Shown: positions 1 to 60,157, numbered from the stretch's first letter. The stretch: 64,000 nucleotides of DNA from a virus (IMGVR_UViG_2636416124_000002:1-64000), one strand, 5' to 3'. Numbers and translations are program-made. The notes: generated by a model not told the origin, from the sequence alone.

Positions 1-1
1 T

Positions 2-22
2 TGAACATCCCTTTCATGTTCA
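2..22. other. Possible att core: TGAACAT-7 bp-ATGTTCA inverted repeat
   Basis: A perfect 7-bp inverted repeat flanks a 7-bp spacer, 75 bp downstream of the integrase stop. This is the geometry of tyrosine-integrase core sites. The partner att site is not in the window. Confidence 0.35.
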
Positions 23-13747: not shown

Positions 13748-14716
13748 GTGAGCACCGAGGCAGTCGACTGGGCCATGGACAAGGCGCCCATGCCGCGCAC
13801 CGAGAAGGGCAAGCCCGACACCACGGGCCGGCACGTCCTCCAGGTGCTCGCCGAGTACGCCAATCCGGCGGGCGCCAACACTCACCCCTCGGTGCTTCGG
13901 ATCCAGTTCCGGACCGGCTACGACCGGACGACGGTGCAGCGGGCGCTGCGCCGGTTGGAGAAGGCCGGGCTGATCCGTCGGGAGGGCTCGGTCGATGGGC
14001 GGACGCGGTGGCAGCTGGCCCTGGAGATGGTGCGCCCGGCTTCGGACTGGACGGATCTGGAGCGCGAGGAGAACGAGTACCGGGCTGCGGCTGCGGAGCG
14101 GAAGCGCCGGTCTCGATCGAAGGGTGTCACAGGCGCAGAGTCTGTGACCGTCACGGACTCAAAGCCTGTGACTGTCACGGACGCAGAGTCTGTGACAGGC
14201 GATGTCACAGACTCTGCGCCCAGCCGTCACGCACTTAACGCCCAGCCGTCACGCACTCAACGCCGCCCTAACCACCAACAACCACCAGTCAACCAACTAC
14301 ATAAAGACTCTTCTTCGCCTCCGGCTCAGCAAGACACCGCAGCAGCCCCGGAAGAGGCCAAGCCGACCGGCAAGCCGCGCGCCGCCAAACCGGCCAAGAA
14401 CGAACACCTCGACGCCTTCGGAGCCTTCTGGCTGAACTACCCGAAGAAGAAGGCCCGCGAGGAAGCCCGCAAGGCATGGATCGCCGCCCTCGGCCGCGGA
14501 GCAGACCCCCAGCACATCGTCACCGCCGCCGCCAGCTACGCCCGCGAACGAGCCAACGAAGACCCCAAGTACACGAAATACCCGGCGACCTGGCTCAACA
14601 AGGGCTGCTACGACGACGAACCCGACCAGCCCGCACGCCCCCACCTCCGCGCCGTCGGCGACTACCAGCCCTGGCGCAACCCCGAAGACCACTCCAGCTA
14701 CTACGAGGAGCTCTAG
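13748..14716 (+). CDS. Phage replication initiator (N-terminal wHTH, internal iterons)
   Basis: N-terminal wHTH (HPSVLRIQFRTGYDRTTVQRALRRLEKAGLI). The C-terminus FWLNYPKKKA...KYPATWLN is typical of phage initiators. The gene precedes DnaC/DnaB. Confidence 0.85.
   Translation: MSTEAVDWAMDKAPMPRTEKGKPDTTGRHVLQVLAEYANPAGANTHPSVLRIQFRTGYDRTTVQRALRRLEKAGLIRREGSVDGRTRWQLALEMVRPASDWTDLEREENEYRAAAAERKRRSRSKGVTGAESVTVTDSKPVTVTDAESVTGDVTDSAPSRHALNAQPSRTQRRPNHQQPPVNQLHKDSSSPPAQQDTAAAPEEAKPTGKPRAAKPAKNEHLDAFGAFWLNYPKKKAREEARKAWIAALGRGADPQHIVTAAASYARERANEDPKYTKYPATWLNKGCYDDEPDQPARPHLRAVGDYQPWRNPEDHSSYYEEL
14124..14263. repeat. Iteron array / probable replication origin 1
   Basis: CGCAGAGTCTGTGAC at 14134 and 14182, with an inverted copy at 14204-14218. 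GCCCAGCCGTCACGCACT at 14218 and 14240. Several further GTCAC/GTGAC cores. Confidence 0.7.
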
Positions 14717-14719
14717 ACC

Positions 14720-15430
14720 ATGGACCTGATCCCGCCCTACGACCCCGCCCAGCACGGCCTCCTGCCGCTGCTCGCCCGCCAAGGCCGTACCGCCGACTGG
14801 TTCACCACCGACACCGGCGACCCGTTCAGCGAACCGAACATCGCCCGCTGGTCCGCACACACCACCGCCAAGAACATCCCGTTCATCTACCAGCGGGCCG
14901 TATCCGAACGCCCCGAGATCAGCCAGTGGATCACCGCCCTCGCCGACCAGGCCCGCAAGGTCCAGGCCGAACGAGGTGCCCCCGTCCCCAGCGTCGTCCG
15001 CGGCCCCTCCCTGCTGCTCCTCGGCCCCACCGGGGTCGGGAAGACCTACGAGGCGCACGCCGCGATCCGGGAACTCGCCGTCACCGGCGTCGTCGCCCGG
15101 TGGACCGTCACCACCGCCGCCGACCTCTACGCCAAACTCCGGGCTCGCCACGGCGTCGACACCGAAGCCGAGTTCCACAGGTTCGTCAACGCCACCGTCC
15201 TCCTCCTCGACGACATCGGTGCCGCGAAGGTCAGCGAGTTCACCGAGGACATCAACTTCCGGCTCATCAACCACCGGTACGAGAACCAGCTCCCCACCCT
15301 CCTCACCTCCAACGTCGCACCCAAGGAACTCGCCAGCCGCGTCGGAGACCGGGTCGCGTCCCGCCTCAACGAAATGTGCCAGCGCGTCGTCATCACCGGC
15401 CCCGACCGCCGCAGGGGACAGGCCGCATGA
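14720..15430 (+). CDS. DnaC/IstB-like AAA+ helicase loader
   Basis: Walker A GPTGVGKT, Walker B LLLLDDIG, and PTLLTSN...DRVASRLNEM. Confidence 0.9.
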   Translation: MDLIPPYDPAQHGLLPLLARQGRTADWFTTDTGDPFSEPNIARWSAHTTAKNIPFIYQRAVSERPEISQWITALADQARKVQAERGAPVPSVVRGPSLLLLGPTGVGKTYEAHAAIRELAVTGVVARWTVTTAADLYAKLRARHGVDTEAEFHRFVNATVLLLDDIGAAKVSEFTEDINFRLINHRYENQLPTLLTSNVAPKELASRVGDRVASRLNEMCQRVVITGPDRRRGQAA

Positions 15431-16799
15431 GCATCGACACCGACCTCTGGGCCCCCGCCGACACCGCACCCGTCGCCGACTTCGAGCGGATGCCCCCGCC
15501 AACCTCGACGCCGAAGTGTCCGTACTCGGCGGGATGATGCTCCACCCCCACGCCATCGGCGAAGTCCTCGACGGGCCCCTCGAAGCCGACGACTTCTACC
15601 GACCCGCCCACGCCATCGTGTACGGAGCCATCACCGGCCTGTACGCCAAGGGCGAGCCCGTCGACCCGATCACCGTCACCAACGAACTCCGCGAAGCCGG
15701 GCTCCTCGAACGGGCCGGAGGCATCACCGCCGCCTCCAACCTGGTCCAGCAGACCCCCAGCGCCGCACACGCCAGCTACTACGCCGACATCGTCCACGGC
15801 GCCGCGAAGCTCCGACGCATCGTCCAAGCCGGCAACCGCATCACCCAGCTCGGCTACGCCGGGGGAGACCCCGACGAAACCGCCGACGCCGCCCAGACCG
15901 AACTCAACAACGCCGTCCAGACCACCGAAGACCCCGACTCCGCGCCCATCGGAGACGACTTCGAGGAGATGGTCGACGAGCTCGTCGAACTGGAGAAGAA
16001 CGGGGCCGCCATGGGTGTCCCCACCGGATTCGCCGACCTCGACGAACTCCTCAAGGGACTCCACCCCGGCCAAATGGTGATCATCGCCGCCCGGCCCGCC
16101 ATGGGAAAGTCCACGCTCGCCGTCGACTTCCTCCGCGCCTGCTCCATCAAGCACCAGCAGCCGTCCGTGCTGTTCAGCCTCGAAATGAGCCGACGGGAAG
16201 TCCAGCACCGCATCATGTCCGCCGAAGCCCGCGTCGCCCTGCACCACATCCGCGGCGGGAACATGACCGACTCCGACTGGGCCCGGTTCGCCCAACGGCT
16301 CCCCGACGTCACCGCCGCGCCCATCACCATCGACGCCACGTCGACGCTGACGATGACGCAGATCAAAGCCCGCGCCCGGAAGATCAAGCAGCGCACAGGG
16401 CTTGCCCTTGTCGTCATCGACTACCTGCAGCTCGTCAGCTCCGGCAGCGGGCGCCGCGCCGAGAACCGGCAGCAGGAAGTCTCCGACATGAGCCGTGCGA
16501 TCAAGCTCATGGCGAAAGACCTCGAGGTGCCCGTCGTTGTCCTCGCCCAGCTCAACCGCGGCCCCGAGCAGCGCCAGGACAAGAAGCCCACCAAGTCCGA
16601 CCTCCGTGAATCCGGATCCCTGGAGCAGGACGCCGACGTCGTGATCCTCCTCCATCGCGAAGACGCCTACGAGAAGGACTCGGCCCGCGCCGGCGAAGTC
16701 GACCTCATCGTCGACAAGCACCGCAACGGTCCCACCGCGGTCATCACCGTCGCCGCTCAGCTGCACTACAGCCGCTTCGTTGACATGGCGCGCACATGA
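15427..16799 (+). CDS. dnaB: Replicative DNA helicase (frameshift in C run 15493-15497)
   Basis: PANLDAEVSVLG N-domain, AARPAMGKS, FSLEM, VIDYLQL, LAQLNR, DLRESGSLEQDAD, KHRNGP. Confidence 0.95.
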
Positions 16800-22937: not shown

Positions 22938-24077
22938 TCAGAACTTCATGGATGGGTGACACCTAGGGCACGGCACCGCCGCAGGCAGCCCATCCCAGCC
23001 AGTCTCGTCCCGCCGACGGGTGACCTCGTCACACTCGGGGTCCCCGCAGTGCTTCCACTTCTCCCACCCTGTCGGCCGCGCCCCAGTGGCAGCCTCCTCC
23101 AGGCGCCGCCACGAGTCCTGATACGGCCTGTGCGGGCCCGAACGCCCGGCAAGCTGCATCCACCCGTCCACGACCGCATCCGTGCCCTGCAGGGGCCTCC
23201 TGGCCGCCTCGCGGAAGGCTGCCGGGTCCGGGAGTTCATCCACGGCCAGCCGGTGCACGTACACCGCCGCAGCAGAGTTCACCGCCGCACCCCCGAGGTC
23301 GAGGTACGTCTTCAAGTCCTGCTCCATCCAGCCGGCGTCCAGGGCGGCAGCGACCAGAGCGACCAGCCGCCCCCGCTGCTTCGACCCCGGTGGACGGCCC
23401 CGGAAGTCCAGGGCGGCCACGAAGGGCTCGGCCAGCGGGTGAAGCTCGCCCGAAGGGGGAGCCACCGCTGCCCCATGCCCGGCGGAAGGCCCAGTCGTGG
23501 CTGTCCCTTCGAAGAAGGAATCGCCACCGCCTCCGCCCTCGGCTGCCGACTCCCGGGCCGCAGGGGAGGACTCCGCCGCGGGGGAGGAGGTGTTAGAGGG
23601 GGTCTTGAAAGAGGAGATAGGAGGAGTAGGGGTCACCTGAGAGATGACCCTTTCCTCACCTGTCAGGTGACCCTTTCGCTCAAGAGGGTCACCTGAGGAG
23701 TGATCCTTCTCGCGGCCGCCTTCTGAAAGGGTCACCTCCGGGGTGACCCTCTCCGGCCGGGTGCAGTGCCCCCTCCAACCGTCATGCGGAGACTCCGGGC
23801 ATAGCTGTGCAAGCCTGTACACCGCAACCTGGCCGACACGCCCCTGCGCGTGCTGAACCAGCACACCCTTCTTCAGCAGCTTGCTGATCGAGTTCTTCCA
23901 GCCCGCCGCCGACTTGTTCGCCCGATGCAGCATGTACTCCTCATGCACCGGACCCCACGTCAGCCGACTCCCATCGTTCGCGTTCTCCGCGAGCAGCAGA
24001 AGGTCGCTCCGCTCGCCCGCGGTCAACCCGGCGTCCTGCCAGTGATCCAACACCTCGACGATCAAACGCACGCCCAC
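22938..24077 (-). CDS. Second replication initiator-like protein with internal iterons
   Basis: N-terminal wHTH (ERSDLLLLAENAND...WKNSISKLLKKGVL), low-complexity linker coinciding with repeats, and C-terminal CxxxxC...CPRC. Confidence 0.65.
   Translation of the reverse strand: MGVRLIVEVLDHWQDAGLTAGERSDLLLLAENANDGSRLTWGPVHEEYMLHRANKSAAGWKNSISKLLKKGVLVQHAQGRVGQVAVYRLAQLCPESPHDGWRGHCTRPERVTPEVTLSEGGREKDHSSGDPLERKGHLTGEERVISQVTPTPPISSFKTPSNTSSPAAESSPAARESAAEGGGGGDSFFEGTATTGPSAGHGAAVAPPSGELHPLAEPFVAALDFRGRPPGSKQRGRLVALVAAALDAGWMEQDLKTYLDLGGAAVNSAAAVYVHRLAVDELPDPAAFREAARRPLQGTDAVVDGWMQLAGRSGPHRPYQDSWRRLEEAATGARPTGWEKWKHCGDPECDEVTRRRDETGWDGLPAAVPCPRCHPSMKF
23630..23750. repeat. Iteron array / probable origin 2
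   Basis: About 7 copies of (A)GGGTCACCT or its complement in alternating orientation, at 23630, 23643, 23665, 23685, 23699, 23728 and 23741. Confidence 0.7.
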
Positions 24078-24221
24078 AGCCGGCCCCCTCTCGCCAGGCC
24101 CGGCACGGCAACGGACAGCACAAACACAGCACTCCTACGGGGATAGCTCGGGACTCGCCCGCCGATCTGGAAACGGCCGGGCAGCAGACGCCGCCCGGCC
24201 GTGAGAAACCGCAGGGGCTGA

Positions 24222-24647
24222 TCAGCCCATCTGGCGGCGAAGGACCCGCAGGGTGTCCACGAACGCCTGCATCTGCGCGATGAGGATGTCGGCGCCATCC
24301 TTGTCGACCTCGACGTCCGACTCCCCGCCCAGGTACATGACGAACGTGTCCTCATCCGGACTGCGGTCGATCTTGAGGAGTTGGGCCTTGATGAGCGCGT
24401 CAGACGAGTCGCCGTCGAGCGGATCGGGGTTTGCCACACTGTGCTCCGCCGACAGGTGGATCGTCATGCCCAGGGTGGCGCACGCCGACGCCAAGTGCTT
24501 CTCACGGCACCAGGCGGCACAGGGGGTGGGATGTGACACCGGAGCCGGCGGCTGCGGAGGAACCGGAGCCGACAGGACCGGGGCGGGAGCGGGCGCAGTG
24601 GCCCCACCGGCAGCCACCGCAGAGTTTTCGATATCGGATACCATCAC
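24222..24647 (-). CDS. DUF6907-like hypothetical protein
   Basis: PTPCAAWCREKH...HLSAEHSV pattern, as I recall from Streptomyces mobile elements. Confidence 0.5.
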   Translation of the reverse strand: MMVSDIENSAVAAGGATAPAPAPVLSAPVPPQPPAPVSHPTPCAAWCREKHLASACATLGMTIHLSAEHSVANPDPLDGDSSDALIKAQLLKIDRSPDEDTFVMYLGGESDVEVDKDGADILIAQMQAFVDTLRVLRRQMG

Positions 24648-24776
24648 GACGAGACCTTCTTCCTGGACGAAGCGGGTTGAAGACCAGACGGATGGTGCCG
24701 CTGGTCACAGGCCGGGCGGACCCAAACCGCCCGGCCTTTTAGCGCCCCCGGGGTGGTGAGCCCCAGGGCCCTGCAG

Positions 24777-24972
24777 CGTCGGCTGGTGAGGCCGACGACG
24801 TGGGAAGAACCTAGATCAGGCCACAGGGGGCCTACACAACATTCAGACCCCTGAAAGTGCGCCTCGACTATCAACGTTGATAGAACAACGAAGAGTCGAA
24901 ACCGCAGGTCAGTACAGTCTTAATAGACAAACGCGGCCCCCTGACCACCAGGTTTCCCGATAACGGGAAACC
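24777..24972. promoter_or_regulatory. Lower-GC intergenic cluster of inverted repeats
   Basis: CGTCGGC/GCCGACG, TTCAG/CTGAA, a perfect palindrome CTATCAACGTTGATAG (24868-24883), GTCT/AGAC, and GGTTTCCCG-ATAA-CGGGAAACC (24951-24972). Confidence 0.55.
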
Positions 24973-25208
24973 CCCTCCGTTGTGTAACTGGATTTCGGTA
25001 TGTACCTTCACCGGCCCGCCAAACCTGGCCGAAACGCGACCGTGGCTGCAGTCACCCCACGAACCTAGCCTCCCGTCAGAACCGGCCATCGAAAACCGGC
25101 GACGCTTCTAACTTGATCAAGAGGGGGCTGCGGTGACATATTCTCAATTTCGGGCAAATCGCAGGTCGCTGACCTGGGACATGTACCTGAGGTATATCCA
25201 TGTAGCGC

Positions 25209-25844
25209 TCACGTACAGCCGAAAGACGTGTCCTGAATTCGATCATGGCGGCGGGTCCTGGAGTGCGCCGCGTCGCACTCAACCCGCAGGACTCTCGTGA
25301 ACCAGGGGTCGGTGCGCACTCCGGAAACGGCGGGCACATCGGAGGGCGGGGCGCTCCCGCCCGGCGTCGGGGCCTTGAAGTGGTGGCCCCACTTCGCGAG
25401 TCGCCCTTCCTCGGCCAGCTTCGCCAGGGCCGCCCGGGATGTAGAGGACGATGCGTTGAACTCGCGGCCGACGTCGGACCCGTACAGGGGAGTGCCAGGT
25501 GCGTACCCTCCACGCTCAAGTGTGGCTTCGATTCCGGCGCGCACCCGGCGCTGGTCTTCGGCGTCGTCGTACTTGTGGGCCTTGCCGGGCCAGCCTCGCC
25601 CGAGGTGGTGGTACCCGTTGTAGAGCGGGCGCTCGCTGGTGATGGCGTCGTTCTCCGCGGTGAGTGCGGACTCCCGGTCGTCCAGCCACTGGACGTCCTT
25701 CCGTGTGACGTGGTGCCACCAGTTCTTGTCGCCAGCGTGCTCGATGAACCGGGTCTTCGGGAACGCGCTGATCCCGATGTAGAGCAGCTGGTCGTCGGCG
25801 TCGTAGAGGCGGTAGAGCGCAGTGCGCTCGGGCGGTGCGGGCAT
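25209..25844 (-). CDS. GIY-YIG nuclease fused to a GntR-like winged HTH
   Basis: ALYRLYDADDQLLYIGIS...RFIEH...E..AI.SERPLYN, then YAPGTPLY...VGREFNASSSTSRAALAKLAEEG. Confidence 0.75.
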   Translation of the reverse strand: MPAPPERTALYRLYDADDQLLYIGISAFPKTRFIEHAGDKNWWHHVTRKDVQWLDDRESALTAENDAITSERPLYNGYHHLGRGWPGKAHKYDDAEDQRRVRAGIEATLERGGYAPGTPLYGSDVGREFNASSSTSRAALAKLAEEGRLAKWGHHFKAPTPGGSAPPSDVPAVSGVRTDPWFTRVLRVECDAAHSRTRRHDRIQDTSFGCT

Positions 25845-25939
25845 AGAGGTTCCCTCCGTTGCCGTGGGTGCGGCTACCAGAAGAACCGTATCGGTATTTG
25901 TGAATAGTCGCTAGCGACTCTGATGAGAAGAACGAGAAA

Positions 25940-25967
25940 GCGCCCCAACTCGCGGGGGTTGGGGCGC
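25940..25967 (-). terminator. Hairpin after the GntR gene
   Basis: GCGCCCCAAC-8 nt-GTTGGGGCGC, followed on the minus strand by TTTCTCGTTCTTCT. Confidence 0.65.
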
Positions 25968-25979
25968 CTGAAGTGCAGG

Positions 25980-26756
25980 TCAGAAGTCGTACCGCAGCGA
26001 GTAGAGGTGGCCCGCTTTCGCCATGGTCGTCACCTCGATCACGCGGTCGCCCGTGCTGTGGACCACCCGAAACGTCCGGAGGATGGCTACCTGGCGCGGC
26101 AGCTGCAACGCCTCGTACTCCTCGTTCGTCGCTTCCTCGGCTGTCACGTGGTCCACGGTGCGCAGCGGTGGAAAACCGAGGCTGGCAAGTAGAGTCGGGC
26201 TCCCGCCCTTGATCTTCGCCTTGCCCTCCAGTGCGGTACCCGCCGCCAGCTCTAGCGGGTAGTACGAGTGCACGAGCTCGCACGGCTCGCCCTGGAGCGA
26301 CAGGAGCTGCTTGCGCAGGACTGCTCTCCCCGTCGGTTCAAGGCCCATGGCTGCCCGGACGTCGGCCGGAGGGGTCGTCTCCGCTACTTCCAGGAGGCGG
26401 ATGCTGGGGCGTCGGCCGTTCTTCTCGGCCTCGCTCAGCCATCGGTACGGCTGCCCAGCCTCGGAGGGCTTCGAATAGGCCGCTGGCGTCATGGTCTGGC
26501 GGCGCACCTCGAGCGCCTTGACGGATGAGCCGGCTCGCCCTTCCAGCAGCCCCTCGGCTTTGAGCATTGAGACGGCCTTCTGGATGCTGGCGCTGGACGC
26601 CCCAAAGCGCTCCTTGAGCTGTCCGGTGCTAGGGATCGCTTCGCCAGCTGGTAGGTCGCCGACGAGGATCGCGCGACGGAGGTCGGTCGCGATGCGCTCG
26701 TGAAGGGGCCTGGGGTCTGCCGCGTCGCTGGGGGTGCGGTTCTTCGCTTCCGGCAT
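25980..26756 (-). CDS. GntR/HutC-family regulator with UTRA domain (KorSA/TraR-like)
   Basis: LHERIATDLRRAILVGDLPAGEAIPS...ERFGAS..SIQKAVSMLKAEGL, plus a C-terminal UTRA-like domain. Confidence 0.9.
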   Translation of the reverse strand: MPEAKNRTPSDAADPRPLHERIATDLRRAILVGDLPAGEAIPSTGQLKERFGASSASIQKAVSMLKAEGLLEGRAGSSVKALEVRRQTMTPAAYSKPSEAGQPYRWLSEAEKNGRRPSIRLLEVAETTPPADVRAAMGLEPTGRAVLRKQLLSLQGEPCELVHSYYPLELAAGTALEGKAKIKGGSPTLLASLGFPPLRTVDHVTAEEATNEEYEALQLPRQVAILRTFRVVHSTGDRVIEVTTMAKAGHLYSLRYDF

Positions 26757-26757
26757 C

Positions 26758-27302
26758 TCAGTGCACCTTCATTTCGTATCGGAGTCTCCGGAGTTTGGCG
26801 GGGGCCACCATCACGTCCGCCTGGACCGGTCGGCCCGCCTCGTCCAGCGAGAGGCGTTCGATGACCACGACCGGCTCGTGATCAGTGAGCTGGAGTTGCT
26901 GCTGCTCAGTCTGCGAGGAGGGGCGGGCTGTGACGTCTTCGATAACGCGCGTGGCGACGTGGCCCAGCTTGGCGAGCAAGGTGATCGCACCCCCCTTGAT
27001 CTTTCGCGGCTCGGCGAGCGCGGTGCCCTTTGCGATGTCGCGCGGGTAGTACGTGTCTGCGAGCTCAACCGGCGCGTCATCGGAGTAGATCGTGCGCCCG
27101 CGAACGATCGCGGTCTCGCCGGCCGCCAGGCCGAAAGCGTTCGCCACGGTCGCGGGCGGAACCGTCTCGCCGGTGCGGGTGAGCTCCTGGCTCCCCTTCG
27201 TGGACTGGCGGTTGGCCTCTTCCGTCCAGGCGTCCGCCGCTCCTGGGGGCGGGGCTTGGTGTAGTCCGCCGACGTGCTGACCCACTCGTTTTCGCTGGCC
27301 AC
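26758..27302 (-). CDS. Stand-alone UTRA-domain protein without HTH (frameshift in G run near 27245)
   Basis: GTG at 27302 with GAAGGAG RBS gives MASENEWVSTS..., and one extra base joins it to the UTRA fold (VELADTYYP...KIKGGAITLL...VVVIERLS). Confidence 0.75.
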
Positions 27303-27390
27303 TGGCGTCTCCGTCTCCTTCTCCGTAGTACGAACCTAGCTGGTTATCACGATAAGCAGGCGTGCCGGGCATCCGGATGTCGCGAGAAGC

Positions 27391-27419
27391 TTGCTGCTTT
27401 TTAGAAATAGCAGTACGGT
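27391..27419 (+). promoter_or_regulatory. HrdB-type promoter of the transfer operon
   Basis: TTGCTG-17 nt-TACGGT, overlapped by a CTGCT/AGCAG inverted repeat, in the gap divergent from the GntR genes. Confidence 0.6.
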
Positions 27420-27463
27420 TGCGAAGTCAGCCCGACACCAACCTCGGATTGGAGGACTTCGCG

Positions 27464-27703
27464 ATGGCGCTTCCCCAAAAGCTGCCGACGCTGTCCGTCA
27501 AGGAAGCGGCCACCGCCCTGGACGTACACCCGTCGACGATCTACCGCTGGGTGGACGAAGGCGAGCTCACCGCCGTCCGCTACGGCAAGAGCCCCAGCGA
27601 GGGCAGCAAGAAGAGGGGCGGCGAGATCCGCATCCCCGAGCACGTCATCGCCGACCGCATGCGTCGTGGCCCCGTCGCCGAGATCGTCGAGGCTGCGGCA
27701 TGA
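27464..27703 (+). CDS. Excisionase-like HTH_17 protein
   Basis: GGAGG RBS. LSVKEAATALDVHPSTIYRWVDEGELTAVR...EIRIP. Confidence 0.8.
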   Translation: MALPQKLPTLSVKEAATALDVHPSTIYRWVDEGELTAVRYGKSPSEGSKKRGGEIRIPEHVIADRMRRGPVAEIVEAAA

Positions 27704-28010
27704 CCCCGCCGCTCACCCCGCCGTCCGCCCTGCTCTCCGATGCCGACATCGCCGCCCACGCCGCCGGCTCTTACGTCCGCCGCCCGGCCCGGGTTTCCCG
27801 CGAGTCGGTGATTCTCCCCGTCGCCCCGGCTGCTCGCCGTCGGCTGATCGCTCTCCGGCGTCTGTGATGGCGACGGCCGAGCAGCCCCGTGAGAACAAGG
27901 TTGTCGCGGAGCGTGCGACTCCGGATGCGTGCCGCCGCGATTACGAGGCTGGTGCTCAGGTTCGGGCCCGGTTGGCCCGGCAGGAAGCCCGCCGCCGCAA
28001 GACCACCTAG
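27700..28010 (+). CDS. Two small basic hypothetical genes (27700-27867, 27867-28010)
   Basis: Coupled starts and stops. Confidence 0.5.
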
Positions 28011-28082
28011 ACCGCCGCTCCTGCCCGGTGTCCCCCCGTCCCGGGCAGGAGCGGCTTCCCACCCCAACCGAAGGGAACCCTC

Positions 28083-28532
28083 ATGGTCGCCAGCATCATC
28101 TCCGCCACCTCCGCCCTGTTAGGTGTCGGCCTGACCCTGTTCTTCCAGCAGCGGCAGGCCCGGCAGGTGCGGGCTGAGGGGCTGGCCGGTGAGCTGCGAC
28201 GGGACACGCTGCAGGCGGTTGCGGAGCTTGCTGCTGCTGTTGCGGATCACCGCCGGACCATGTGGGTGAGGGAAGAGAAGCGGCTGAACGGCGAGGACTG
28301 GGCGCAGGATCGTGCCGCGTCGCATGCCACCCGGTCCGCGATCACTATCCCGTACACCCGGCTGTGCATCCTCGCCCCGGTTCTTGACCGGGCGGCGAAT
28401 GACGCCCTCGCAGCGACATACGCGATGCGGAACGCCACCACCATCCTTGAGCTCGAAGACCAGCGGGATCTTGCGTTCGTTGCCCAGGCCCGCCTGATGG
28501 CGGCAGCCACTGCCGAACTCAACCCGAACTGA
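28083..28532 (+). CDS. kilB: KilB-like plasmid spread/kill membrane protein, copy 1
   Basis: N-terminal TM (SIISATSALLGVGLTLFFQ) then AELAAAVADHRRTMWVREEKRL, matching my recollection of the Streptomyces plasmid KilB family. Confidence 0.65.
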   Translation: MVASIISATSALLGVGLTLFFQQRQARQVRAEGLAGELRRDTLQAVAELAAAVADHRRTMWVREEKRLNGEDWAQDRAASHATRSAITIPYTRLCILAPVLDRAANDALAATYAMRNATTILELEDQRDLAFVAQARLMAAATAELNPN

Positions 28533-28583
28533 ACCCCAGCGCACCTCGCTGTACCCCACCCAAGCCAACCGAAGGGCACCCCC

Positions 28584-30305
28584 ATGTCTCCGTACCTGAT
28601 GTCCGCGCCCCGCCTCGACCTCCTGTCTGATGCCGATGATGCCGCCACGTCGGTGTCCGCGGTGTGGCGCAGGGCGAACACGACTGTCGCCCAGGCCGAG
28701 GAGGCCGCCGAGGGTGCTGACCGTGACCGGCTTGCGGTGTCCCTGCTCTCCGAGTACCGGGACGCCCGGTCGAAGAACGACCGGGACCGCATGTCGCACG
28801 TCCTCCTCGCCGCGACCGACCTTGACCACGCGTCCCCCGGTTGGCCGCGGCTGATGGACGAGATTCGCGGCCTGAACACCCCGGCCGCCGCCTGACTCTT
28901 TTCGCCCTCCATCGCCGCCATCACCTGGAGCCCCACATGAGCATGCCCCGCCCCATTGCCGACCTGATCTGCCTGGGTCGGGACCTTGTCCGCCACCCGC
29001 GGATGGTGCTCCTGAACCGGGGGCATCACCGGTGGACGCCTGCCGGGCTGATCGCCGCAGCCGCTGTCGCCTCGGCTGGCACCCCGGTCGGCTACCACGT
29101 CCTTGCCGCCGCGGTGCTCGTCGCCGGGCCGTTCTGGGCGCTCGACATGATCGGCGCCCTCGCCCACGGGCTGTGGCAGTCCGGGCGGATCTGGTCCGAC
29201 CTGGAGTGCCAGTGCTGCGGCGACGACCCCGACGACGAAGACGACGACCCCGTACCGGACGAGCCGGAAGACGACGGCGGACTCGCCGCCGACATCGAGA
29301 CCTGGCTCAAGACCCAGACCACCCACCACTGAAGGGCCCCGTCATGATCACGCAGACCGCCTGGCCCGAGAACGTCATCGCCCGCTACCTCACCGCCGGC
29401 GGAGCCACCGTCGACCTGACGCACCGGCTCACCGTGCATAACCCGCCCGAGCCGTTCGCCACCCTCGCGACATGCACAGGCTGCCCCGTCACCGAGGAGC
29501 GTGGCCACTACCGCACCTACTACCCCTCGGGCGGCTTTCTGGGTGACGCGGTCGAAGAGCACGAGCCCGAGGCGGCCGACGCACAGGCCCGTGCCTGGGC
29601 GCAGTCCCACGCCGAGACCTGCCGCGCCATCCCCAAGCCCGCCTGACCCGAAAGGAGCGACAGTGCCGAGCGATCCCATCACCGGACTTCGACTGAAGGA
29701 CGGCAGCACCATCACGGTCAACCCACGAGACCCCCGCGACTGCCACACCATCAGCCACACCTTCTTCCGGGCGACGGTCCGCTGCGCCGCAACAGGTGCG
29801 GTTCGGCGAATCAAGTGGCGGAACGTCGTGCGCGTCCGCCGGACCTCCGAAGACGGCCACTACTGGACCTCCTGAACACCCCTCACTCAAAGGACACCGC
29901 CATGGCACTCCTGATCACGATCGCATTCCTGTCTCCCATGATCGCCGTCACCATCTGGCTCGCCTTCAGCCAGCCGGTGAACCGCGACGACTCCTGAACC
30001 AAGCAACCCAGAAAGGACACCGACCCGTCGTGACCACGCAGATCATCGAGCCCGGCCGCTATGACTACCGCCTCACCGTCAAGTTCCCCAGCACCTACAC
30101 CCCCGACCACACGCCGCCCGCGTTCCGCTTGGCCGCCGCGTACCCGACCAAGCGAACCCGCAGCGTGTTCGGGCAGTTCAACCTCACTGCGCGCATGCCG
30201 CATGACCTCATCCGCGATCACTTCGTCCGCCGGGTCACGGATGAGCTGCTGCTGACGAGCGGTGACATCGAGCTTGTCAGCTTCACCCTCGACCAGCCCG
30301 CCTGA
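28584..30305 (+). CDS. Small genes of the transfer operon: 28584-28895, 28937-29332 (membrane), 29344-29646, 29663-29875, 29902-29997 (membrane), 30030-30305
   Basis: Each has an AAGG/GGAG-type RBS; two have hydrophobic helices. Confidence 0.6.
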
Positions 30306-30340
30306 GCAACCACCCCACACCAGGAAGGAATAGACCCGTC

Positions 30341-31714
30341 GTGACGACCAGCCCGCCCCAGGTGAACGGCCACCGCCGCCGCATCCCCGTGATCACGGAG
30401 TGGCAGACGCTCCTCGCGGCAACCGCCGAGGAGCCGGTCGCCACCACCGAACCCCAGCCCGAACCGGCCCCGCCCACTGTGGACCTCATCGCCCAGGCCG
30501 AGGCCGACGCCATCCGCACCAAGGCCTACGCCGACGCCGAAGAACAGCGCGCCCGAGCCGAAGCTGAGGCCGAGGCCCTGCGCATCAAGGCCGAAGGCGA
30601 GGCCAAGGCCGCCGAGATCAAGGCGGCCGAGGAAGCCCGCAAGCTGAAGCTCGCCAACGACAAAGCCCAGGCCCGCGCCATCGAGGAACAGGCCGCCCGG
30701 GACGCCCGCATCGCCGAAGCCAACCGGAAGCGCGCCGAAGCCGAACGTGGCCAGCGGGACGACGAGCGCGCCCACCGGGAGCAGCAGCAGACCGCCGCCG
30801 CCGCCGAAGCTGAGATCGCGAAGGCCGCCAGCACCTGGCGCGGGTACGCCATCGCCTTCTACGCCGTGTGCGCGGTCGTCGCCCTCCCGGTGCAGATCGC
30901 AGCGTTCTGGGACCCGGACGCACCCTGGCTCGTCATCGCCCCGCTCATGCTCGAAGGTGCCGCGCTCGTCGTCACCAAGGGCGCCGCCGCAGCTGTTGCC
31001 GCGACCCGCCCGCACTGGCACTACCGCACCGTCGCCTGGATGTTCGCGTTCATCGCCGCCGGGATCAACCTCGTCCACGGGCTCGACGCGTTCGATCCCG
31101 CCACCGCGATCGGCACCGCCTTTGCGTCCCTCGCCGGCCCCGGGGTGTGGGACCTCCACGAGCACGGGCGGATCCGGCGCCGCGACGGTGTTCTGACGCG
31201 GCGGCAGCGGAAGGCCCAGGCTGCCGCGGCCAAGGCGGAGCTCAGGCAGAAGGCGGCCGAAGAGAAGCGGAAGGCCAGCGAGAAGGAAGCCGCGGAGGAG
31301 GCTGCCCGGGAAGCCGCCGAGGCGCTCGCCAACTCCCGCGCCGAAGAGTTCCCGGAGGTGTGGGACGAGGCGGAGAAGATCGCTGCGGCAGTCGGCGAGA
31401 TCACCGTCACGGAGGCCGTTTGGAAGCGCGCCTACCGCAACATCCAGGGCGCCGAGCCTGGCGAATCCATTGAGTCCATCACAGCCCGCCGGAAGGCCGA
31501 AGGGCGAGTCGCAGCAGCCCTCTCCGGGACCCCAGTCGCCACCCTCAGCAAGAACAAGAACGCGCAGCGTGCAAACCAAATGCCCCGGGTTCAGCGAGGG
31601 CCTGCACGCAAGCCTCCCGTCCGCCGCCCGGGAGACACCGCGAAGTACGTCCAGGCCGCCCGCAAGCAGGCCGCCATCACCGCCAAGAACGCCTCCACCG
31701 AGGAGCAGAAGTGA
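30341..31714 (+). CDS. DUF2637-like coiled-coil/multi-TM spread (Spd-type) protein
   Basis: Long Ala/Glu coiled coil, then four TM helices (YAIAFYAVCAVVALPVQ...APLMLEGAA...AFIAAGIN..H...), directly upstream of traA/traB. Confidence 0.7.
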   Translation: MTTSPPQVNGHRRRIPVITEWQTLLAATAEEPVATTEPQPEPAPPTVDLIAQAEADAIRTKAYADAEEQRARAEAEAEALRIKAEGEAKAAEIKAAEEARKLKLANDKAQARAIEEQAARDARIAEANRKRAEAERGQRDDERAHREQQQTAAAAEAEIAKAASTWRGYAIAFYAVCAVVALPVQIAAFWDPDAPWLVIAPLMLEGAALVVTKGAAAAVAATRPHWHYRTVAWMFAFIAAGINLVHGLDAFDPATAIGTAFASLAGPGVWDLHEHGRIRRRDGVLTRRQRKAQAAAAKAELRQKAAEEKRKASEKEAAEEAAREAAEALANSRAEEFPEVWDEAEKIAAAVGEITVTEAVWKRAYRNIQGAEPGESIESITARRKAEGRVAAALSGTPVATLSKNKNAQRANQMPRVQRGPARKPPVRRPGDTAKYVQAARKQAAITAKNASTEEQK

Positions 31715-31742
31715 CCGTCCGAATCAACACTGAGGAGACTCG

Positions 31743-32336
31743 ATGAGCACCCCCTCCGAGCAGGTCCGTAACTTCGCCCAGCAGCAGGCCGACCAGCCCT
31801 TCACCGCCCCGCCCCGCCCCCGCAAGGCGCCGACGAACGGTACCCACCAGGGCGGGGACAACAACTCGAAGACGCGTAACGGCGGAGGGTTCAACCCGAA
31901 GGTCGGCCTGACCCTCAACAAGACCGTCGTCCAGGGTGCTGGCACAGTCGGCGCCACCCCGGGCGCGGGCACCCGCTCCGGAACCGGCGGGAAGGTCCCG
32001 GGTTCCGACTTCATGTCGAACGAGGACATCCGGGCGTTCTGCGAGCACCACCGCAAGCAGTCCCGGAACGGGGCCACCGAACTCGCCCTCGACGCAGACC
32101 ACCTGGAGACAGTCCTCCGCGCGATCCGCGACCCCAACGGCACCATCGGAGGGTCCCGGGCCAGGGCCCGCCGTGTCACCCGGTGGCTGAAGAAGGCTGC
32201 CGCCGCCCAGAAGGCACAGCAGAAGTACTTCGCCGCCCTCTACGCCACGTTCGAGCGGGAGTTCGACTCCAACCTCCGCACCGTCGGCAAGGCTCGCTCC
32301 CAGCAGCGCCCCACCCGCAACTTCAACTGGCAGTAA
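31743..32336 (+). CDS. traA: Plasmid transfer protein TraA-like
   Basis: FMSNEDIRAFCEH...ARARRVTRWLKKAA...YATFEREF. Located immediately upstream of traB, as in pJV1-type plasmids. Confidence 0.6.
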   Translation: MSTPSEQVRNFAQQQADQPFTAPPRPRKAPTNGTHQGGDNNSKTRNGGGFNPKVGLTLNKTVVQGAGTVGATPGAGTRSGTGGKVPGSDFMSNEDIRAFCEHHRKQSRNGATELALDADHLETVLRAIRDPNGTIGGSRARARRVTRWLKKAAAAQKAQQKYFAALYATFEREFDSNLRTVGKARSQQRPTRNFNWQ

Positions 32337-32360
32337 CCGTCCCTGACTGGAGTACATCCC

Positions 32361-34357
32361 GTGGCTGACAGCCCCAAGGCCGACCTGTGGAAGGCCATCA
32401 AGCACCCCCGCATGAGGCCCTGGCTGACAGTCGCCGCCGAGGTCCCCGCCACCTTCGCCTCCCACCACTACTGGGGCGACTCCGTACCCGCAGCGATCGG
32501 CCTCACCGTCGCCGCCGGGGTACTCACCGCCGCAACCTGGTGGGCGGCAGAGGGCACCCGGCCCGGCAGGCGGATCCACGCCACCCTGTCCACCGGCCTC
32601 GGAACCTCCTACCTCGTCGTCGGGACCGTCACCGGCCCGTTCGACCCGGCCATGGCATCCACCCTCGTCATCGGCGGTGCGGTCGCCGCGGGGTCCTGGA
32701 ACATCCGCCAAGCGTTGCGCGTCAACGTCGACCCCCAGAAGACAGGCGGCAACGCCGAGACCGGTGTACTCGTCAAGGCCATCGGTGACGCCAAGGTCGC
32801 CCTCCGAAGCAAGCCGAAGATCGAACCTAACAAGGTCACCGCACCCCTCCAACTCGCCGCCGGACAGGTCACCTCCGACGACCTTGGCAACCGCATCAAG
32901 CACATCGCCGGCGAACTCGGCGTCTCCCCGACCAGCATCCGCGTCATCCCCGACCCCGACGACGCCGCCCGCGCCACCCTCGTCGTCGTCCCCAAGGACG
33001 AACTCAAGCAGCCCACCCCTGGCCCGGCCCGTCCAGCCCGGGTGGCAGCATCACCGAGCCCGTCGTCCCCGGCATCTACGAGGACGGTGAGGAGGCGACG
33101 CTGTGGTTCCCCGCCGGACCCGGCCGGAACGCCACGCACTTCCTCACCGCCGGGATGAACGGCTCCGGGAAGTCCGCCGGCCAGTCCGTTGCCATCACCG
33201 AAGCCCTGACCCGCCGCGACGCCATCGTGTGGGCCGTCGACCCGTCGAAGGGCATGCAGACCTTCGCCCCGTTTCTGCCCCACCTGGACTGGGTCGAGAT
33301 GACCGAGGCCGGCGGCAACGAGATGATCGACGCCCTGTCGCAGGTCATCACTGCCCGCGCCAACCGCCTCGGCCAGCACGGCTACAAGAACTGGACCCCG
33401 GACGCGTTCGACCAACTCGGCATGCCGTACCTGATCGTGTGGATCGAGGAAGCCGCCAAGTTCTTCCGCAACGGCACCGAGATGGAAGGCTTGGTCATGG
33501 AGGCCAGGTCCGCCGGGATCAGCGTCATCATCAGCCTCCAACGCCCGTCCGCCACGTCGATGCCGACCGACGTCCGCGAGCAGCTCGGCGGCGTCCTCTG
33601 CTTCGGCGTCAAGGGCTCCACCACCGCCGACATGGCCCTCCCCGACGACGTCCGCGACGCCGGCGCCCGCCCCGAAGCATGGGAGAACCGCAAGCCCGGC
33701 TACGCCTACCTCGTCGCCCCCGGCGTCGACGAAGACCGCTACGCCACCCCGCTGCGCACCTACCTCATCGACGACGACCAGATCACCGGGGCCCTCGCCA
33801 TCCTGCCCCGCACCCCCATCGACCCCGTCACCGCCGCCGCAGCCGGTGACGCCTACGCCAACCGCACCCAATACGACACCGACAGTCCACTGACCAGCGG
33901 TGACACCGACAGGCAGGAGCCCGTCCTCATGACCAAGGACGACAACGAGCAGGCAGAGAAGGCACTGCTGGAGAAGCAAGTCGACCGCGAGATCGACGCC
34001 ATGGTCGGCGACGACCCCGACGACGACGGACACGTCCCCGATGTCGACGCCGACCAGGAAATCGCCGCGGTGAGCGAGGTGTGGTCGTTCGGCCAGGCCC
34101 AGGCGACCGTGGAGGAGAAAACACCGGAGGCCGGGATGGAAGCCCTGATGGTGATGCTCGACGAGTTCCGGGCCGAGGAGCGGGAGACGATCGGACCGAA
34201 GGACTTCAGCCCCTACGGCAAGGGTTCACGCATCGGAAGGGCCCGTTCCTGGGTGTCAGGGGCCCTCGGAGACCTGTCAGATGCCGGGATTCACCTGTCA
34301 GAAACGGACAAGCCGGGGGTGTACCGGCTGCTGTACCCGGAGCTGGCGGAGGTCTGA
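32361..34357 (+). CDS. traB: TraB, FtsK/SpoIIIE-like conjugative dsDNA translocase (frameshift in C run 33017-33020)
   Basis: N-terminal TM helices, Walker A GMNGSGKS, DPSKG, Walker B IVWIEEA, ARSAGISVIISLQR, and a C-terminal wHTH (RIGRARSWV). Confidence 0.9.
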
Positions 34358-34535
34358 CACCCGGGGGTGTCAGCGCTGACACCCCATCTGACCTGCGGTG
34401 ACACCGTTCTGACAGGGTTCTGACACCCCGAAGGTGTCAGGACCGGTGTCAGAAGCCCTCCGGAGGGCCGATCTCTATAGGTCATGCGCGTGCGCGCGCA
34501 TGACCCGCCCCTCCGTGACACCCCAACCTGACACA
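34252..34535. repeat. clt-like locus (TraB recognition repeats)
   Basis: CTGACACC or its complement at 34252, 34354, 34366, 34376, 34420, 34433 and 34445. Variants GTGACACC, CTGACAGG and CTGACACA at 34273, 34294, 34398, 34409, 34515 and 34528. Confidence 0.8.
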
Positions 34536-34547
34536 GGAGACAAACCC

Positions 34548-34977
34548 GTGAAAAGCCCCGAACCGGACGGAGGTCGGGCCAAGGTACTCGCCGCAGCACT
34601 CCGCACCTGGACCACCGTCGACAACGACCCCAACCCCCGTCGCACGCCTCGAAATCCGGTATCCACCCCACTGGGCCTTCACCCACACCAACCCCATCAC
34701 CGCCCGCCAGCAGACCCGGCTCCTCGCCTTCCTCCGCGACGACCTCGCCGAGAACCGGCCCACCCACTCCACCCCCGAACGAGCCGCCGCCGTCATCCAA
34801 GGGCTCCTCGCCGAGCACGCCGCGGCCGGCCGTAGTCGCATCACTACCGCAGACCTTGCGCAGGCTGCGCCGCGCATCGGCCGGTCCCGGGCCTGGATCG
34901 CCGCTCACATCACAGACCTCATCGACGCCGGAGTGCTTCGCGAGACCAGGCGCCCCGACACCTTCCGCATCACCTAG
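34548..34977 (+). CDS. Small protein with TraB-like C-terminal wHTH (frameshift near 34635)
   Basis: AGGAGA RBS. C-terminus APRIGRSRAWIAAHITDLIDAGVLRETRRPDTFRI aligns by eye with the TraB C-terminus. Confidence 0.6.
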
Positions 34978-34987
34978 GAGCCTTCTC

Positions 34988-35476
34988 ATGCAGCTGCCCG
35001 AGCAGCCCGTCGCCGGGCAGCCCGACCCCACCGTCCGTCGCAACGCCGACCAACTGATGGCCGCGGTCGACGAGGCTCTTCTCGCCCGGCAGGCCACCTT
35101 TCACCGTGACGACCGCCCGCTCCCCGCCGTGGGTACGGCACCGCCTGTTGCCCAGCCTGGGACTCCTCCGATGTCGCAGTGGGCCACGGACGCGAGCGGC
35201 GTCCTCAAGGCCGTGTCCGTGGCGGCCCTGCCGATCGGCGGCGCCCTGTGGATCGTCGGCCAGGTCGATCCGCTGACCCTCGGCATCATCTTCGGCTCCC
35301 CGGCCGTCGCGGCCCTGGCCGTCGCCCGGCTCGTCGCGAAGGTCAAGGACGCCAACCAGAACGCCCCCCAGCCGGTCACCAACCACTTCCACGGCACCGT
35401 CCACCAGGACACCCACACCGTCACCAGCACCACCCGGGGGATCATCGCCAACACCCGCAACCAACACGGAAACTGA
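34988..35476 (+). CDS. Putative spread-type membrane protein
   Basis: Pro-rich linker (PAVGTAPPVAQPGTPPMSQ) and two TM helices, within the tra operon. Confidence 0.55.
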   Translation: MQLPEQPVAGQPDPTVRRNADQLMAAVDEALLARQATFHRDDRPLPAVGTAPPVAQPGTPPMSQWATDASGVLKAVSVAALPIGGALWIVGQVDPLTLGIIFGSPAVAALAVARLVAKVKDANQNAPQPVTNHFHGTVHQDTHTVTSTTRGIIANTRNQHGN

Positions 35477-35705
35477 GCAGCCACCCCAAACCGACTCACA
35501 ACCCCGACAAAGACGGGACGATCGAAAAATGACCCACAAGCCCAACAGCAACCAAGACGAGCAACCACCCGCTGCTACGCCTCCACTGGACCCACATGAG
35601 AACCAGGCAGAGTCCGACCACATGCGTGACGTCGACTTCTGGGATGGCACCGGAGACCCGCTCGACTTCTACGACCCCTGAACCGCGACCTGAAGGAGCC
35701 CACAG

Positions 35706-36224
35706 ATGTGGGACAGCATCATTGCCGTCACAGGCACCCTCGCGGGTGGCCTCCTCGTCACGGTGACCCAGCAGTGGACCGCCCGGCGCGCCCGGCGCGA
35801 GCAGCACCGACAGCAGGTGGCAGACCTCACCGGCCAGCTACTCAGCGCGGCGCTCCGCTACCGCCAGCTCTACTGGCTCCGGGTCGACTCCCTTCGGGAG
35901 GGCGAGCCGGACCCGGTCGCCCGCGGCGACTTCTACCAGGCCCGGTCCGACGTCACCGAAGCCCGCGACCGGCTCGCCCTGGTGGTCACCGACGAGGCGC
36001 TGCTCCGGGCAGCTGGTCGAGCGGCGTGGTCAGCACTGGACCTCTCCGACATCGACCCCGGCCACCCGCAGGACGGCCGGTACGCCCCGGAGGTCGAGGC
36101 CCGCCTCGACGCCGCACGGGAACGCAGCCGAGACGCCCACACGGAGCTACGACAGGCCGCTACCGGCTACGGCACCCGGGCAGCACCTGGTCGCGCCGTC
36201 GATACCCGGTCGCAACGCACCTGA
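35706..36224 (+). CDS. kilB: KilB-like protein, copy 2
   Basis: MWDSIIAVTGTLAGGLLVTVTQ...QLLSAALRYRQLYW; same architecture as 28083-28532. Confidence 0.6.
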   Translation: MWDSIIAVTGTLAGGLLVTVTQQWTARRARREQHRQQVADLTGQLLSAALRYRQLYWLRVDSLREGEPDPVARGDFYQARSDVTEARDRLALVVTDEALLRAAGRAAWSALDLSDIDPGHPQDGRYAPEVEARLDAARERSRDAHTELRQAATGYGTRAAPGRAVDTRSQRT

Positions 36225-36413
36225 TTCGAGCGCAACGAGGCCCCGGACCGTCTGGTCCGGGGCCTTCTGTGTTGCACGGGCGATCCACGAGTCACCGAGA
36301 CTGTTCGTGGGCCGGAGGGTGACCTGTACGTCGAGCCGGCTGCACAGGTCGTCCAGCGCTTGCTGGCATTCGTCGTGAGTGCTGCCGTGGACCGTGAACC
36401 TCGCCATGAGCAC
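36147..36413 (-). CDS. Small hypothetical protein (3' end doubtful)
   Basis: MARFTVHGSTHDECQQAL... Last gene of the minus-strand operon; it reads through the terminator into kilB-2. Confidence 0.4.
   Translation of the reverse strand: MLMARFTVHGSTHDECQQALDDLCSRLDVQVTLRPTNSLGDSWIARATQKAPDQTVRGLVALESGALRPGIDGATRCCPGAVAGSGLS
36238..36265. terminator. Hairpin ending the transfer operon
   Basis: AGGCCCCGGACC-GTCT-GGTCCGGGGCCT between convergent genes. Confidence 0.7.
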
Positions 36414-43357: not shown

Positions 43358-43372
43358 GACGAATCCTTTCGA

Positions 43373-46199: not shown

Positions 46200-46990
46200 A
46201 TGACGACCCCGCCCCGCAGCACCCGAGGGAACAACGACGGACCCCGGCACCCAGCCGGCCAACCCGCCCAACCCCCGGCCGCACCACCCGCACCGGCCCA
46301 ACCGGAGCCGGCCGCACCCACCACCGCCGAACCGAGCGAACCGAACCAGCCCGAACCGAAGGCCAAGGCGCCCAAGTTCGAAGGCGACTTCGACCCCGCC
46401 CGGTTCGAGAAGCTCGTCGAGAACCTTCGCGGCGACGTCGCAGCCGAGAAGGCCAAGCGCGAAGCCCTGGAACAGAAGGCCAAGGACGACCAGGACGCCC
46501 TCATGAAGCGGGTGGCCGCAGCGTTCGGCCTGGAGACCGACGAGGCCAAGCCGCCCACCCCCGAAGAGCTCGCCAAGCAACTGGACGAGGCCCGCGGAGA
46601 GACCAAGGAGTCCCGCGCGCAGGCCCGCCAGACGCAGGTCGAACTCGCCGTCTACAAGACGGCCGGGAAGCACGGTGGCGACCCCGACGCACTGCTCGAC
46701 TCACGCACCTTCGCCAACGCCATCTCGAAGCTCGACCCGGCCACGGACGACTTCAACGAGCAGGTCGGCAAGGCAGTGAAGACGGCAGTCGACAGCAACC
46801 CGAAGCTCGCGGCCAAGGCGCCGCAGCCGAAGGAGCCGGAGCCCACCCCGCAGGGGGCGCACCGATGGACGGGGCCGGTGGGAGCAAGAAGCAGCTGGGC
46901 GAGGCGGATCTAGCTCGCATGACTCCCAAGCAGATCAACCAGGCCATGGCCGAAGGGCGGTTCGACCGCTACCTGGGCAGGGCCGGATAA
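46200..46990 (+). CDS. Capsid scaffolding protein (frameshift in G run near 46853)
   Basis: Pro-rich N-terminus, coiled coil, GGDPDALLDSRTF; directly precedes the capsid gene. Confidence 0.8.
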
Positions 46991-46999
46991 GGACCCACC

Positions 47000-47860: not shown

Positions 47861-47900
47861 TCCCTCCCACCACCTCGTCGGCGTTCTCTCTGGAGGAATC

Positions 47901-48952: not shown

Positions 48953-48955
48953 CCG

Positions 48956-50632: not shown

Positions 50633-50642
50633 GAGGCCCGTC

Positions 50643-51229: not shown

Positions 51230-51323
51230 CGACTGGTGATCCGCTGCGCTCAATCCCTGGGCGGGGGCGGCACAGCGGATCACCTGCAAGCCCCCGCCCG
51301 CCCCTGCCCAAGAAGGACAAGCC

Positions 51324-52153: not shown

Positions 52154-52167
52154 GAGGGGAGGGCAGC

Positions 52168-58969: not shown

Positions 58970-58982
58970 GAGGAGGACACCC

Positions 58983-60155: not shown

Positions 60156-60157
60156 GC

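Follow-up and report, generated by a model that had tools for sequence, protein, structure and literature searches.

Can a temperate phage that inserts into the Streptomyces chromosome also carry the module by which Streptomyces plasmids move between hyphae? Phages and conjugative elements are usually seen as separate routes of gene flow, and the few known Streptomyces hybrids are free plasmids. The question is raised by a stretch of 64,000 nucleotides (the window), which corresponds to bases 1-64000 of an 82,122-bp IMG/VR virus record (IMGVR_UViG_2636416124_000002, termed G000 here; record class 'linear', CheckV completeness 100%). The GC content of the window is 65-72%, and no tRNA gene was found in it; genes were called by third-position GC. 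A first-pass annotation had read the block at 22.9-36.3 kb as a complete TraB conjugation system within an integrating, virion-forming phage. Our analysis indicates that the window is probably most of a ∼82-kb temperate siphovirus-type Streptomyces prophage with a built-in conjugation or spread module, a joint reading that is seen in genes only. The other genomes named below are G005, a syntenic sibling provirus, and further relatives or genomes (G001, G006, G007 and others).

The transfer module and its phage setting

The block lies between phage early genes and packaging genes, as the first-pass annotation had it: the phage replication module is upstream, and the genes for the large terminase (TerL), portal, capsid and tail are downstream (Table 1). 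The gene order of the block is that of the pWTY27 transfer region (GntR, DUF2637, traA, traB, clt). The GntR genes divergent from an xis-like gene, the two kilB genes, traA, the clt-like array and a spread-like gene were all recovered at their expected places with Pfam, NCBIfam and comparisons with pIJ101 and pSN22.

The traA gene ends 24 bases before the traB start, and by both model score and position its product is a plasmid TraA; it shares 56% identity with pCQ4 TraA. The FtsK-like translocase is encoded in G000 in two pieces (32361-33158 and 33155-34357). Aligned with pCQ3 TraB, the N-terminal 225 and the C-terminal 445 residues are read in two separate frames, and identity with the pCQ3 and pCQ4 proteins across the two frames is 72-76%. 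With the NCBIfam plasmid_TraB model (NF041214) the G000 halves yielded 251 bits (model positions 2-215) and 482 bits (256-638), and the intact G005 TraB yielded 830 bits (cut-off 800). The downstream frame encodes the Walker A motif, GMNGSGKS, right at the beginning of the second open reading frame (ORF), at about 33143-33166; the motif aligns to pCQ3 TraB. The traB assignment of the first-pass annotation is borne out by homology to pCQ3/pCQ4 and to plasmid_TraB, although not as one open frame. When compared with pSN22 and pWTY27, TraA and TraB show 33-40% identity.

An array of (C)TGACAC(C) repeats starts inside the traB 3' end. Exact CTGACACC words are concentrated there, with seven of the eight copies in the window falling within 34252-34452 (∼200 bp). 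A CTGACACC cluster also follows traB in 10 of 10 IMG/VR relatives and in pCQ3 and pCQ4, including relatives with a TraB only 55-68% identical. The experimentally defined clt of pWTY27 contains four TGACACC repeats footprinted by the translocase and likewise starts inside the tra 3' end (PMC3583192); these repeats lie at 9805-9842 of pWTY27. The pJV1 repeat differs from TGACACC, which is that of pWTY27 (PMC3583192). In an alignment with pWTY27, pSN22 and pCQ3, the TraB C-terminus retains the R-x-R-S/P-W-V/I-S helix of a predicted winged helix, with the cognate repeats adjoining. The array is termed clt-like and is a candidate TraB docking site.

The surrounding genes are those of a temperate tailed phage: TerL, portal, major capsid protein, tape measure, lysin, and an integrase beside an att core, with the att duplication seen on siblings and a single core in G000. 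In the sibling G005 all phage structural genes (TerL, portal, major capsid protein, tape measure, minor tail and amidase) are uninterrupted.

By analogy with plasmids of the pSN22/pJV1/pWTY27 class, GntR/HutC-type repressors would hold the module off (kil-kor logic). After excision, hexameric TraB would bind the CTGACACC repeats of clt via its C-terminal winged helix and pump the circular double-stranded element into the adjoining hypha. The SpdB2-like, SpdA-like and KilB proteins would then carry the element across cross-walls, and the integrase would reinsert it. We infer that the module and the virion genes work, in which case the element would have both a virion route and a contact route. 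If this is true, it would explain how a temperate phage colonises a compartmented mycelium or a host that lacks the receptor. It would also make the element a candidate driver of chromosome mobilisation in antibiotic producers, with clt lying in the chromosome when the element is integrated (cf. PMC11571958). The att site, the clt motif and the intact siblings make the idea directly testable in Streptomyces.

Several observations weigh against a prophage with two such routes. The first is an alternative use of the same genes: the Tra/Spd module may serve spread inside one mycelium and not mating between mycelia, so that one infection or excision event would reach many compartments. TraB and Spd proteins do drive plasmid spreading within the mycelium, the core common to the siblings (spdB2-like, traA, traB, clt and spdA-like) does not include the regulators, an FtsK-like translocase of some kind is retained at the equivalent place in sibling phages, and SpdB2 homologues on actinophages have been proposed to aid the spread of phage DNA (PMC4447253). 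The same plasmid proteins, however, mediate both steps, and the roles are not exclusive; moreover, pZL12 and pFP4 are reported as conjugative (PMC4170104, PMC3583192). We consider spread confined to one mycelium unlikely, albeit an alternative to be taken seriously. In addition, (i) Pfam FtsK_SpoIIIE stayed below threshold on this TraB clade (14 bits); (ii) the GntR, kilB and xis-like genes of G000 are not conserved in G005, which points to variable regulatory wiring; (iii) the assembled sequence interrupts several genes, among them traB, int and that of the tape measure protein; and (iv) G000 is without host flanks, so that the element may have been either integrated or excised in the sequenced culture.

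Frameshifts and integration

At least 10 genes of G000, traB, int and the tape measure gene included, are split by single-base deletions. The frameshift sites are at window positions 552, 33016, 46875, 50970, ∼55130 and 60262, and at record positions 64714, 65276, 68759 and 74511. When G000 was compared with G005, 9 of 49 shared genes were split in G000, and no gene was split in G005 alone. All nine scored events are 1-base deletions, most of them in G or C runs, with no insertions and no larger indels, and an intact single-frame traB is present in all 10 IMG/VR relatives. Because the pattern is one-sided and consists of 1-base deletions centred on homopolymers, the frameshifts probably reflect homopolymer under-calling, a sequencing error, and not decay. 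A 'complete' TraB system does not hold for this copy as assembled, with both traB and int frameshifted, probably through that error.

The number of interrupted genes would also fit a decaying, defective prophage in which the frameshifts are real mutations and neither spread route works, and in G007 the same attB is occupied by a clearly decayed relative, in which int is truncated, traB is damaged and 397-aa genes are duplicated. Real mutations would, however, have to account for nine events of one kind and one direction, and nucleotide identity elsewhere is ordinary; we regard a defective copy as improbable.

The window integrase shares 89-94% identity, in two frames, with the intact 423-aa G005 integrase. 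The latter matches PHROG 1 integrase (E 4e-29), and a SAM-like N-terminal domain is seen in the integrase. No match was obtained among PDB sequences, and Pfam Phage_integrase was undetected across the whole record, though PHROG 1 matches. The att core, TTGAACATCCCTTTC, is 13-14 bp long and adjoins the integrase gene. G005, whose identity with G000 is 74-93% over most of its length, has the core on both sides (attL and attR with host flanks), with the integrase inside its left end; its right flank holds a small host gene with its start codon in the core, followed by an ABC-transporter ATPase. G006 has an empty attB, to which the left flank of G005, the core and the right flank of G005 align without interruption. 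In G007 (Streptomyces sp. NBC_01590, a complete 8.7-Mb chromosome) two cores 37.7 kb apart surround the decayed relative (1689451-1727174), in which the two near-identical 397-aa genes are probably an insertion sequence pair. IMG/VR labels four relatives as proviruses, and neither ParA (AAA_31) nor ParB_N was found in the 82-kb record, unlike pCQ4. Since there is an integrase, an att core at the record end, inserted siblings and an empty site, and no ParA/ParB, the element is, as read from these genes and sites, of the integrating kind. The first-pass annotation had likewise called it chromosomally integrating.

Could the record instead represent an extrachromosomal plasmid-phage like pCQ3, pCQ4 and pZL12, in which the integrase only resolves multimers? 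G000 is exactly one unit without host flanks, its first base (T) is of the phage-arm type when compared with the A or G found on the host side in four genomes, it has a candidate second initiator with repeats, and pCQ4 likewise has a tyrosine recombinase. Nevertheless, a plasmid-phage would be expected to be episomal with a partition system, and here no par genes are present in the record and the siblings are integrated. The break point of the record is exactly the att core used by those siblings, four of the relatives being classed as provirus. An episomal state as the normal one is, in our estimate, quite improbable. Circular permutation of the record was also considered and discarded, as the G005 flanks do not match the other end of G000.

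A conserved ∼146-aa host gene, located ahead of an ABC-transporter operon, has a start codon that overlaps attB. Once the element is integrated, this gene is rebuilt with upstream signals that come from the phage arm: a purine-rich stretch resembling a ribosome-binding site and a TTG start.

The TraB clade and known elements

The first-pass annotation had noted no second integrase in the block and had named a block-flanking att or target duplication as evidence that would speak for an independent element. No integrase was found within the block in Pfam-type scans; a small serine invertase/resolvase is encoded only past the window end, at 71732-72355 of the record. Neither flanking direct repeats nor an att-like duplication of the tra block was convincing. 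Five sibling ∼80-kb proviruses (G011-G013 and two more) with portals 84-88% identical are without this TraB; at the equivalent place they have a different 672-741-aa ORF with a weak TraB-model match, and three of these five ORFs (737-741 aa) attain the Pfam FtsK_SpoIIIE cut-off. These data suggest that translocase modules are swapped within one phage lineage, and a translocase looks like a standing feature of that lineage. Because no block-flanking duplication was found and an FtsK-like gene lies at the same place in siblings, the tra block seems to belong to the phage proper and does not look like a nested actinomycete integrative and conjugative element (AICE). That an AICE or plasmid transfer region landed in the prophage and is still an independent nested element is very improbable: the block does have its own excisionase-family gene, GIY-YIG gene and candidate initiator, and the module is mosaic between siblings, but it has no integrase and no flanking direct repeats, related phages keep a translocase at the same position, and the TraB clade is phage-associated as a whole.

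The window-type TraB was found on chromosomal contigs of 0.3-8 Mb, with terminase and portal genes of several PHROG families within the following 6-10 kb. Among 301 sampled Streptomyces genomes, 28 had plasmid_TraB above cut-off. The panel used to survey the loci for phage genes comprised 13 TerL, portal and major capsid proteins, so 'none seen' means undetected by this panel and not absent. When 20 loci were examined, two with a ∼60% identical TraB and one long-branch outlier had TerL with portal or capsid nearby, and no phage gene was detected with this small panel at loci with a 35-41% identical TraB (pSN22/pWTY27-like).

A TraB tree (quick maximum-likelihood search, midpoint root only, leaving out the fragment L050 and the identical rows L009, G005 and G001) has two deep clades (SH-aLRT 100). 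One contains pSN22, pWTY27 and the loci without a phage gene seen. In the window-type clade 18 of 28 rows are phage-linked, pCQ3 and pCQ4 are nested inside, and the other ten rows include short or end-of-contig loci. The phage-associated TraB clade seems fairly widespread. We put forward tentatively, with rather less confidence than the prophage reading itself, that an integrating Streptomyces temperate phage lineage may own a dedicated TraB clade together with clt and Spd, used for virion-free, receptor-independent spread and maybe for host-DNA mobilisation; pCQ3 and pCQ4 would be derived members and not the source.

The plasmids pCQ3 (NC_013449) and pCQ4 (NC_019307) resemble the element in traA-traB (56-76% protein and about 80% DNA identity), in the CTGACACC repeats after traB followed by a small winged helix-turn-helix (wHTH) gene, and in the terminase, portal and capsid genes downstream of tra. 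In contrast, they are circular 85-kb plasmids with ParA/ParB and another backbone, whereas the studied element has int and att at its ends and no par. A backbone kinship with pCQ4 was rejected, as traA/traB and a few weak matches are all that is shared.

Plasmid-phages were reportedly described as pZL12/phiZL12 by Zhong et al. in 2010 (J Bacteriol 192:3747) and as pFP4 by Chen et al. in 2012 (Plasmid 68:170), both works being cited in PMC4170104 and PMC3583192. Each of these elements is reported to conjugate and to form infective particles, a combination for which the element here has the genes; unlike it, they are kept as episomes. Transfer of pZL12 is reported to need a major tra gene and adjacent genes (PMC3583192). 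A search with the TraB protein against GenBank phages, the pZL12 translocase included, gave nothing at E 1e-8, and the DNA of the whole block gave only a 56-bp match, to pZL12. For pSLE1, a relative of pZL12 with two integrases, an ability to insert was suggested (PMC4487206). By gene content, the element is the integrating counterpart of free-replicating plasmid-phages of the pZL12/pFP4 kind.

The plasmids pWTY27, pSN22 and pJV1 share with the element the order GntR, spd/DUF2637, traA, traB, clt and spd, and have TraB proteins 33-40% identical; pWTY27 in addition shares the TGACACC repeat of its clt, which likewise starts within the tra gene, at its 3' end. Unlike the element, these plasmids or AICE-like elements measure 11-14 kb and lack a virion module, and the TraB tree places them in its other deep clade. 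Just after traB-clt, pWTY27 carries a phage major capsid gene (10642-12102; PMC3583192), another link between a transfer module and a phage.

The AICEs (pSAM2, SLP1 and pMEA300) have in common with the element site-specific integration, an FtsK-like Tra, Spd and a GntR-type Kor (PMC2440964, PMC3218068). They differ in being 9-24 kb long, inserted mostly in tRNA genes, replicated by RepSA, RepAM or Prim-Pol, and without virions, whereas the element is 82 kb long, uses the 5' end of a protein gene as its site and has full tailed-phage particle genes. The AICE combination of int, Tra and replication genes without virion genes does not describe it, a full head, tail and lysis set being present. 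No RepSA, RepAM or Prim-Pol turned up in Pfam scans of the block ORFs, which were not searched for these by name. Surveys of AICEs left out prophages by design (PMC3218068). The full-text literature searched contained no account of a tailed prophage that is integrated and carries TraB/clt, although the original pZL12 and pFP4 papers were beyond this search and an earlier description is possible. The novelty claimed by the first-pass annotation was overstated, given traA/traB of pCQ3 and pCQ4 and the experimental precedents of pZL12 and pFP4 (PMC4170104, PMC3583192). An integrating prophage lineage with an intact TraB, clt and Spd blurs the boundary between prophage and AICE.

Candidate second replicon, regulators and other genes

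Table 1. Features of the window and of the record that contains it (window positions unless stated otherwise)
Feature	Position	Strand	Remarks
att core TTGAACATCCCTTTC	1..15	.	G000 starts on the core and ends just short of where a second copy would recur
att/host-gene sites	window 1-15; record end 82100-82122; L023 ∼4500-4950; L054 ∼1500	.	attB start-codon overlap
Tyrosine integrase	97..1367	-	Extreme left end of record; split here by a 1-base deletion near 552-555
Phage replication module (O-like initiator, DnaC-like loader, DnaB helicase)	13748..16799	+	Pfam and PHROG matches
379-aa ORF, candidate initiator or regulator	22938..24077	-	Internal GGGTCACCT palindrome cluster, 23630-23751
GIY-YIG endonuclease-like gene	25209..25844	-	Pfam GIY-YIG; PHROG 3312 endonuclease
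GntR+UTRA (HutC-type) repressor, Kor/TraR-like	25980-26756	-	Pfam
UTRA-only paralogue	26758-27372	-	Pfam; tandem with the GntR+UTRA gene
Excisionase-family helix-turn-helix gene	27362-27703	+	Divergent from the GntR genes; HTH_17; TIGR01764, 40 bits (cut-off 28.8)
KilB homologue 1	28083-28532	+	N-terminal membrane anchor; transmembrane segment, residues 2-20
SpdB2-like membrane protein, 457 aa	30341-31714	+	N-terminal coiled coil, at least 3 transmembrane segments, C-terminal domain
traA	31743-32336	+	NCBIfam plasmid_TraA (NF041213), 113 bits, cut-off 80
traB, FtsK-like dsDNA translocase	32361-34357	+	Split by a 1-base deletion near 33012-33020
clt-like array of (C)TGACAC(C) repeats	34252..34540	.	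Both orientations; starts inside traB 3' end, spans traB stop codon
Small wHTH gene	34548-34977	+	Right after clt; frameshifted here; C-terminus resembles TraB wHTH
SpdA-like protein	34988-35476	+	2 transmembrane segments; PHROG 19266; 29% to gene after traB in pSN22, E 2e-5
KilB homologue 2	35706-36224	+	33% to pIJ101 KilB, E 3e-5; paralogue of 28083-28532
Portal	41666-43357	-	PHROG 533, E 1e-99
Large terminase (TerL)	43373-44629	-	PHROG 2, E 2e-45; Pfam Terminase_6N
Scaffold-like gene, connectors, minor tail genes	within 46200..62974	+	Pfam/PHROG-type matches
Major capsid protein	47000-47860	+	Within the 46200..62974 head/tail region
Tape measure	51877-58031	+	Split here; single 2018-aa ORF in G005 (51066-57122)

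The first-pass annotation had also proposed a second replicon at the left of the block. The repeats on which this rests are present: six palindromic repeats of the GGGTCACCT type lie within the 379-aa ORF, which holds all four exact copies of the window. The ORF has good third-position GC at both ends, with the repeat-bearing stretch central. A language-model (Atlas) lead points to HTH_36, to which the O-like initiator of the phage itself belongs. No Rep-family match was found in Pfam, NCBIfam or PHROGs, and pairwise comparison with the O-like initiator and with the pCQ4 helix-turn-helix protein gave nothing. The repeats may be iterons or, equally, operators, and the second replicon is no more than a candidate.

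The GntR+UTRA repressor shares 26-30% identity with pWTY27 GntR, pSN22 TraR and pIJ101 KorA. The GIY-YIG gene carries a weak GntR-type helix-turn-helix and is placed among the regulators of the tra block. The first KilB homologue shares 42% identity with KilB of pIJ101 (E 1.6e-16; 136 of 147 aa aligned), a match by which it was assigned to KilB. A ∼28-nt motif, CCAACCGAAGGG.ACCC.CATG, lies directly upstream of three start codons of the block (28058-28085, 28559-28586 and 29319-29346).

The DUF2637-like gene of the first-pass annotation encodes the SpdB2-like protein, with the layout described for SpdB2 (PMC4447253) and an Atlas lead to 'putative SpdB2' (0.86); it is syntenic with the pWTY27 DUF2637 gene. 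The match to pIJ101 SpdB is weak (E 0.005), and a Pfam match (DUF2637) is absent even at E 1. The protein is SpdB2/DUF2637-like by architecture, with weak sequence similarity.

The small wHTH gene is intact in G001 (143 aa; 36757-37188) and in pCQ3 (145 aa; 14220-14657), and is kept in both pCQ3 and pCQ4. At their C-termini the G001 and pCQ3 versions share 28-32% identity with residues 586-657 of TraB (E about 2e-8 to 3e-7), and the product is a possible clt-binding accessory or competitor.

Among the phage genes, a PDDEXK recombination nuclease and an exonuclease are encoded in the left 22 kb, the tape measure protein bears M23 peptidase and SLT lytic transglycosylase domains, and an amidase endolysin is encoded past the window end. 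The portals of the closest isolated phages are only about 38% identical. A large serine integrase past the window was ruled out, since the 207-aa protein has its matches among small DNA invertases (PHROG 125) and the ORF after it is a separate one. The terminase and portal genes are on the minus strand, divergent from the scaffold-capsid-tail operon (41666-46200), which is an uncommon order for a siphovirus.

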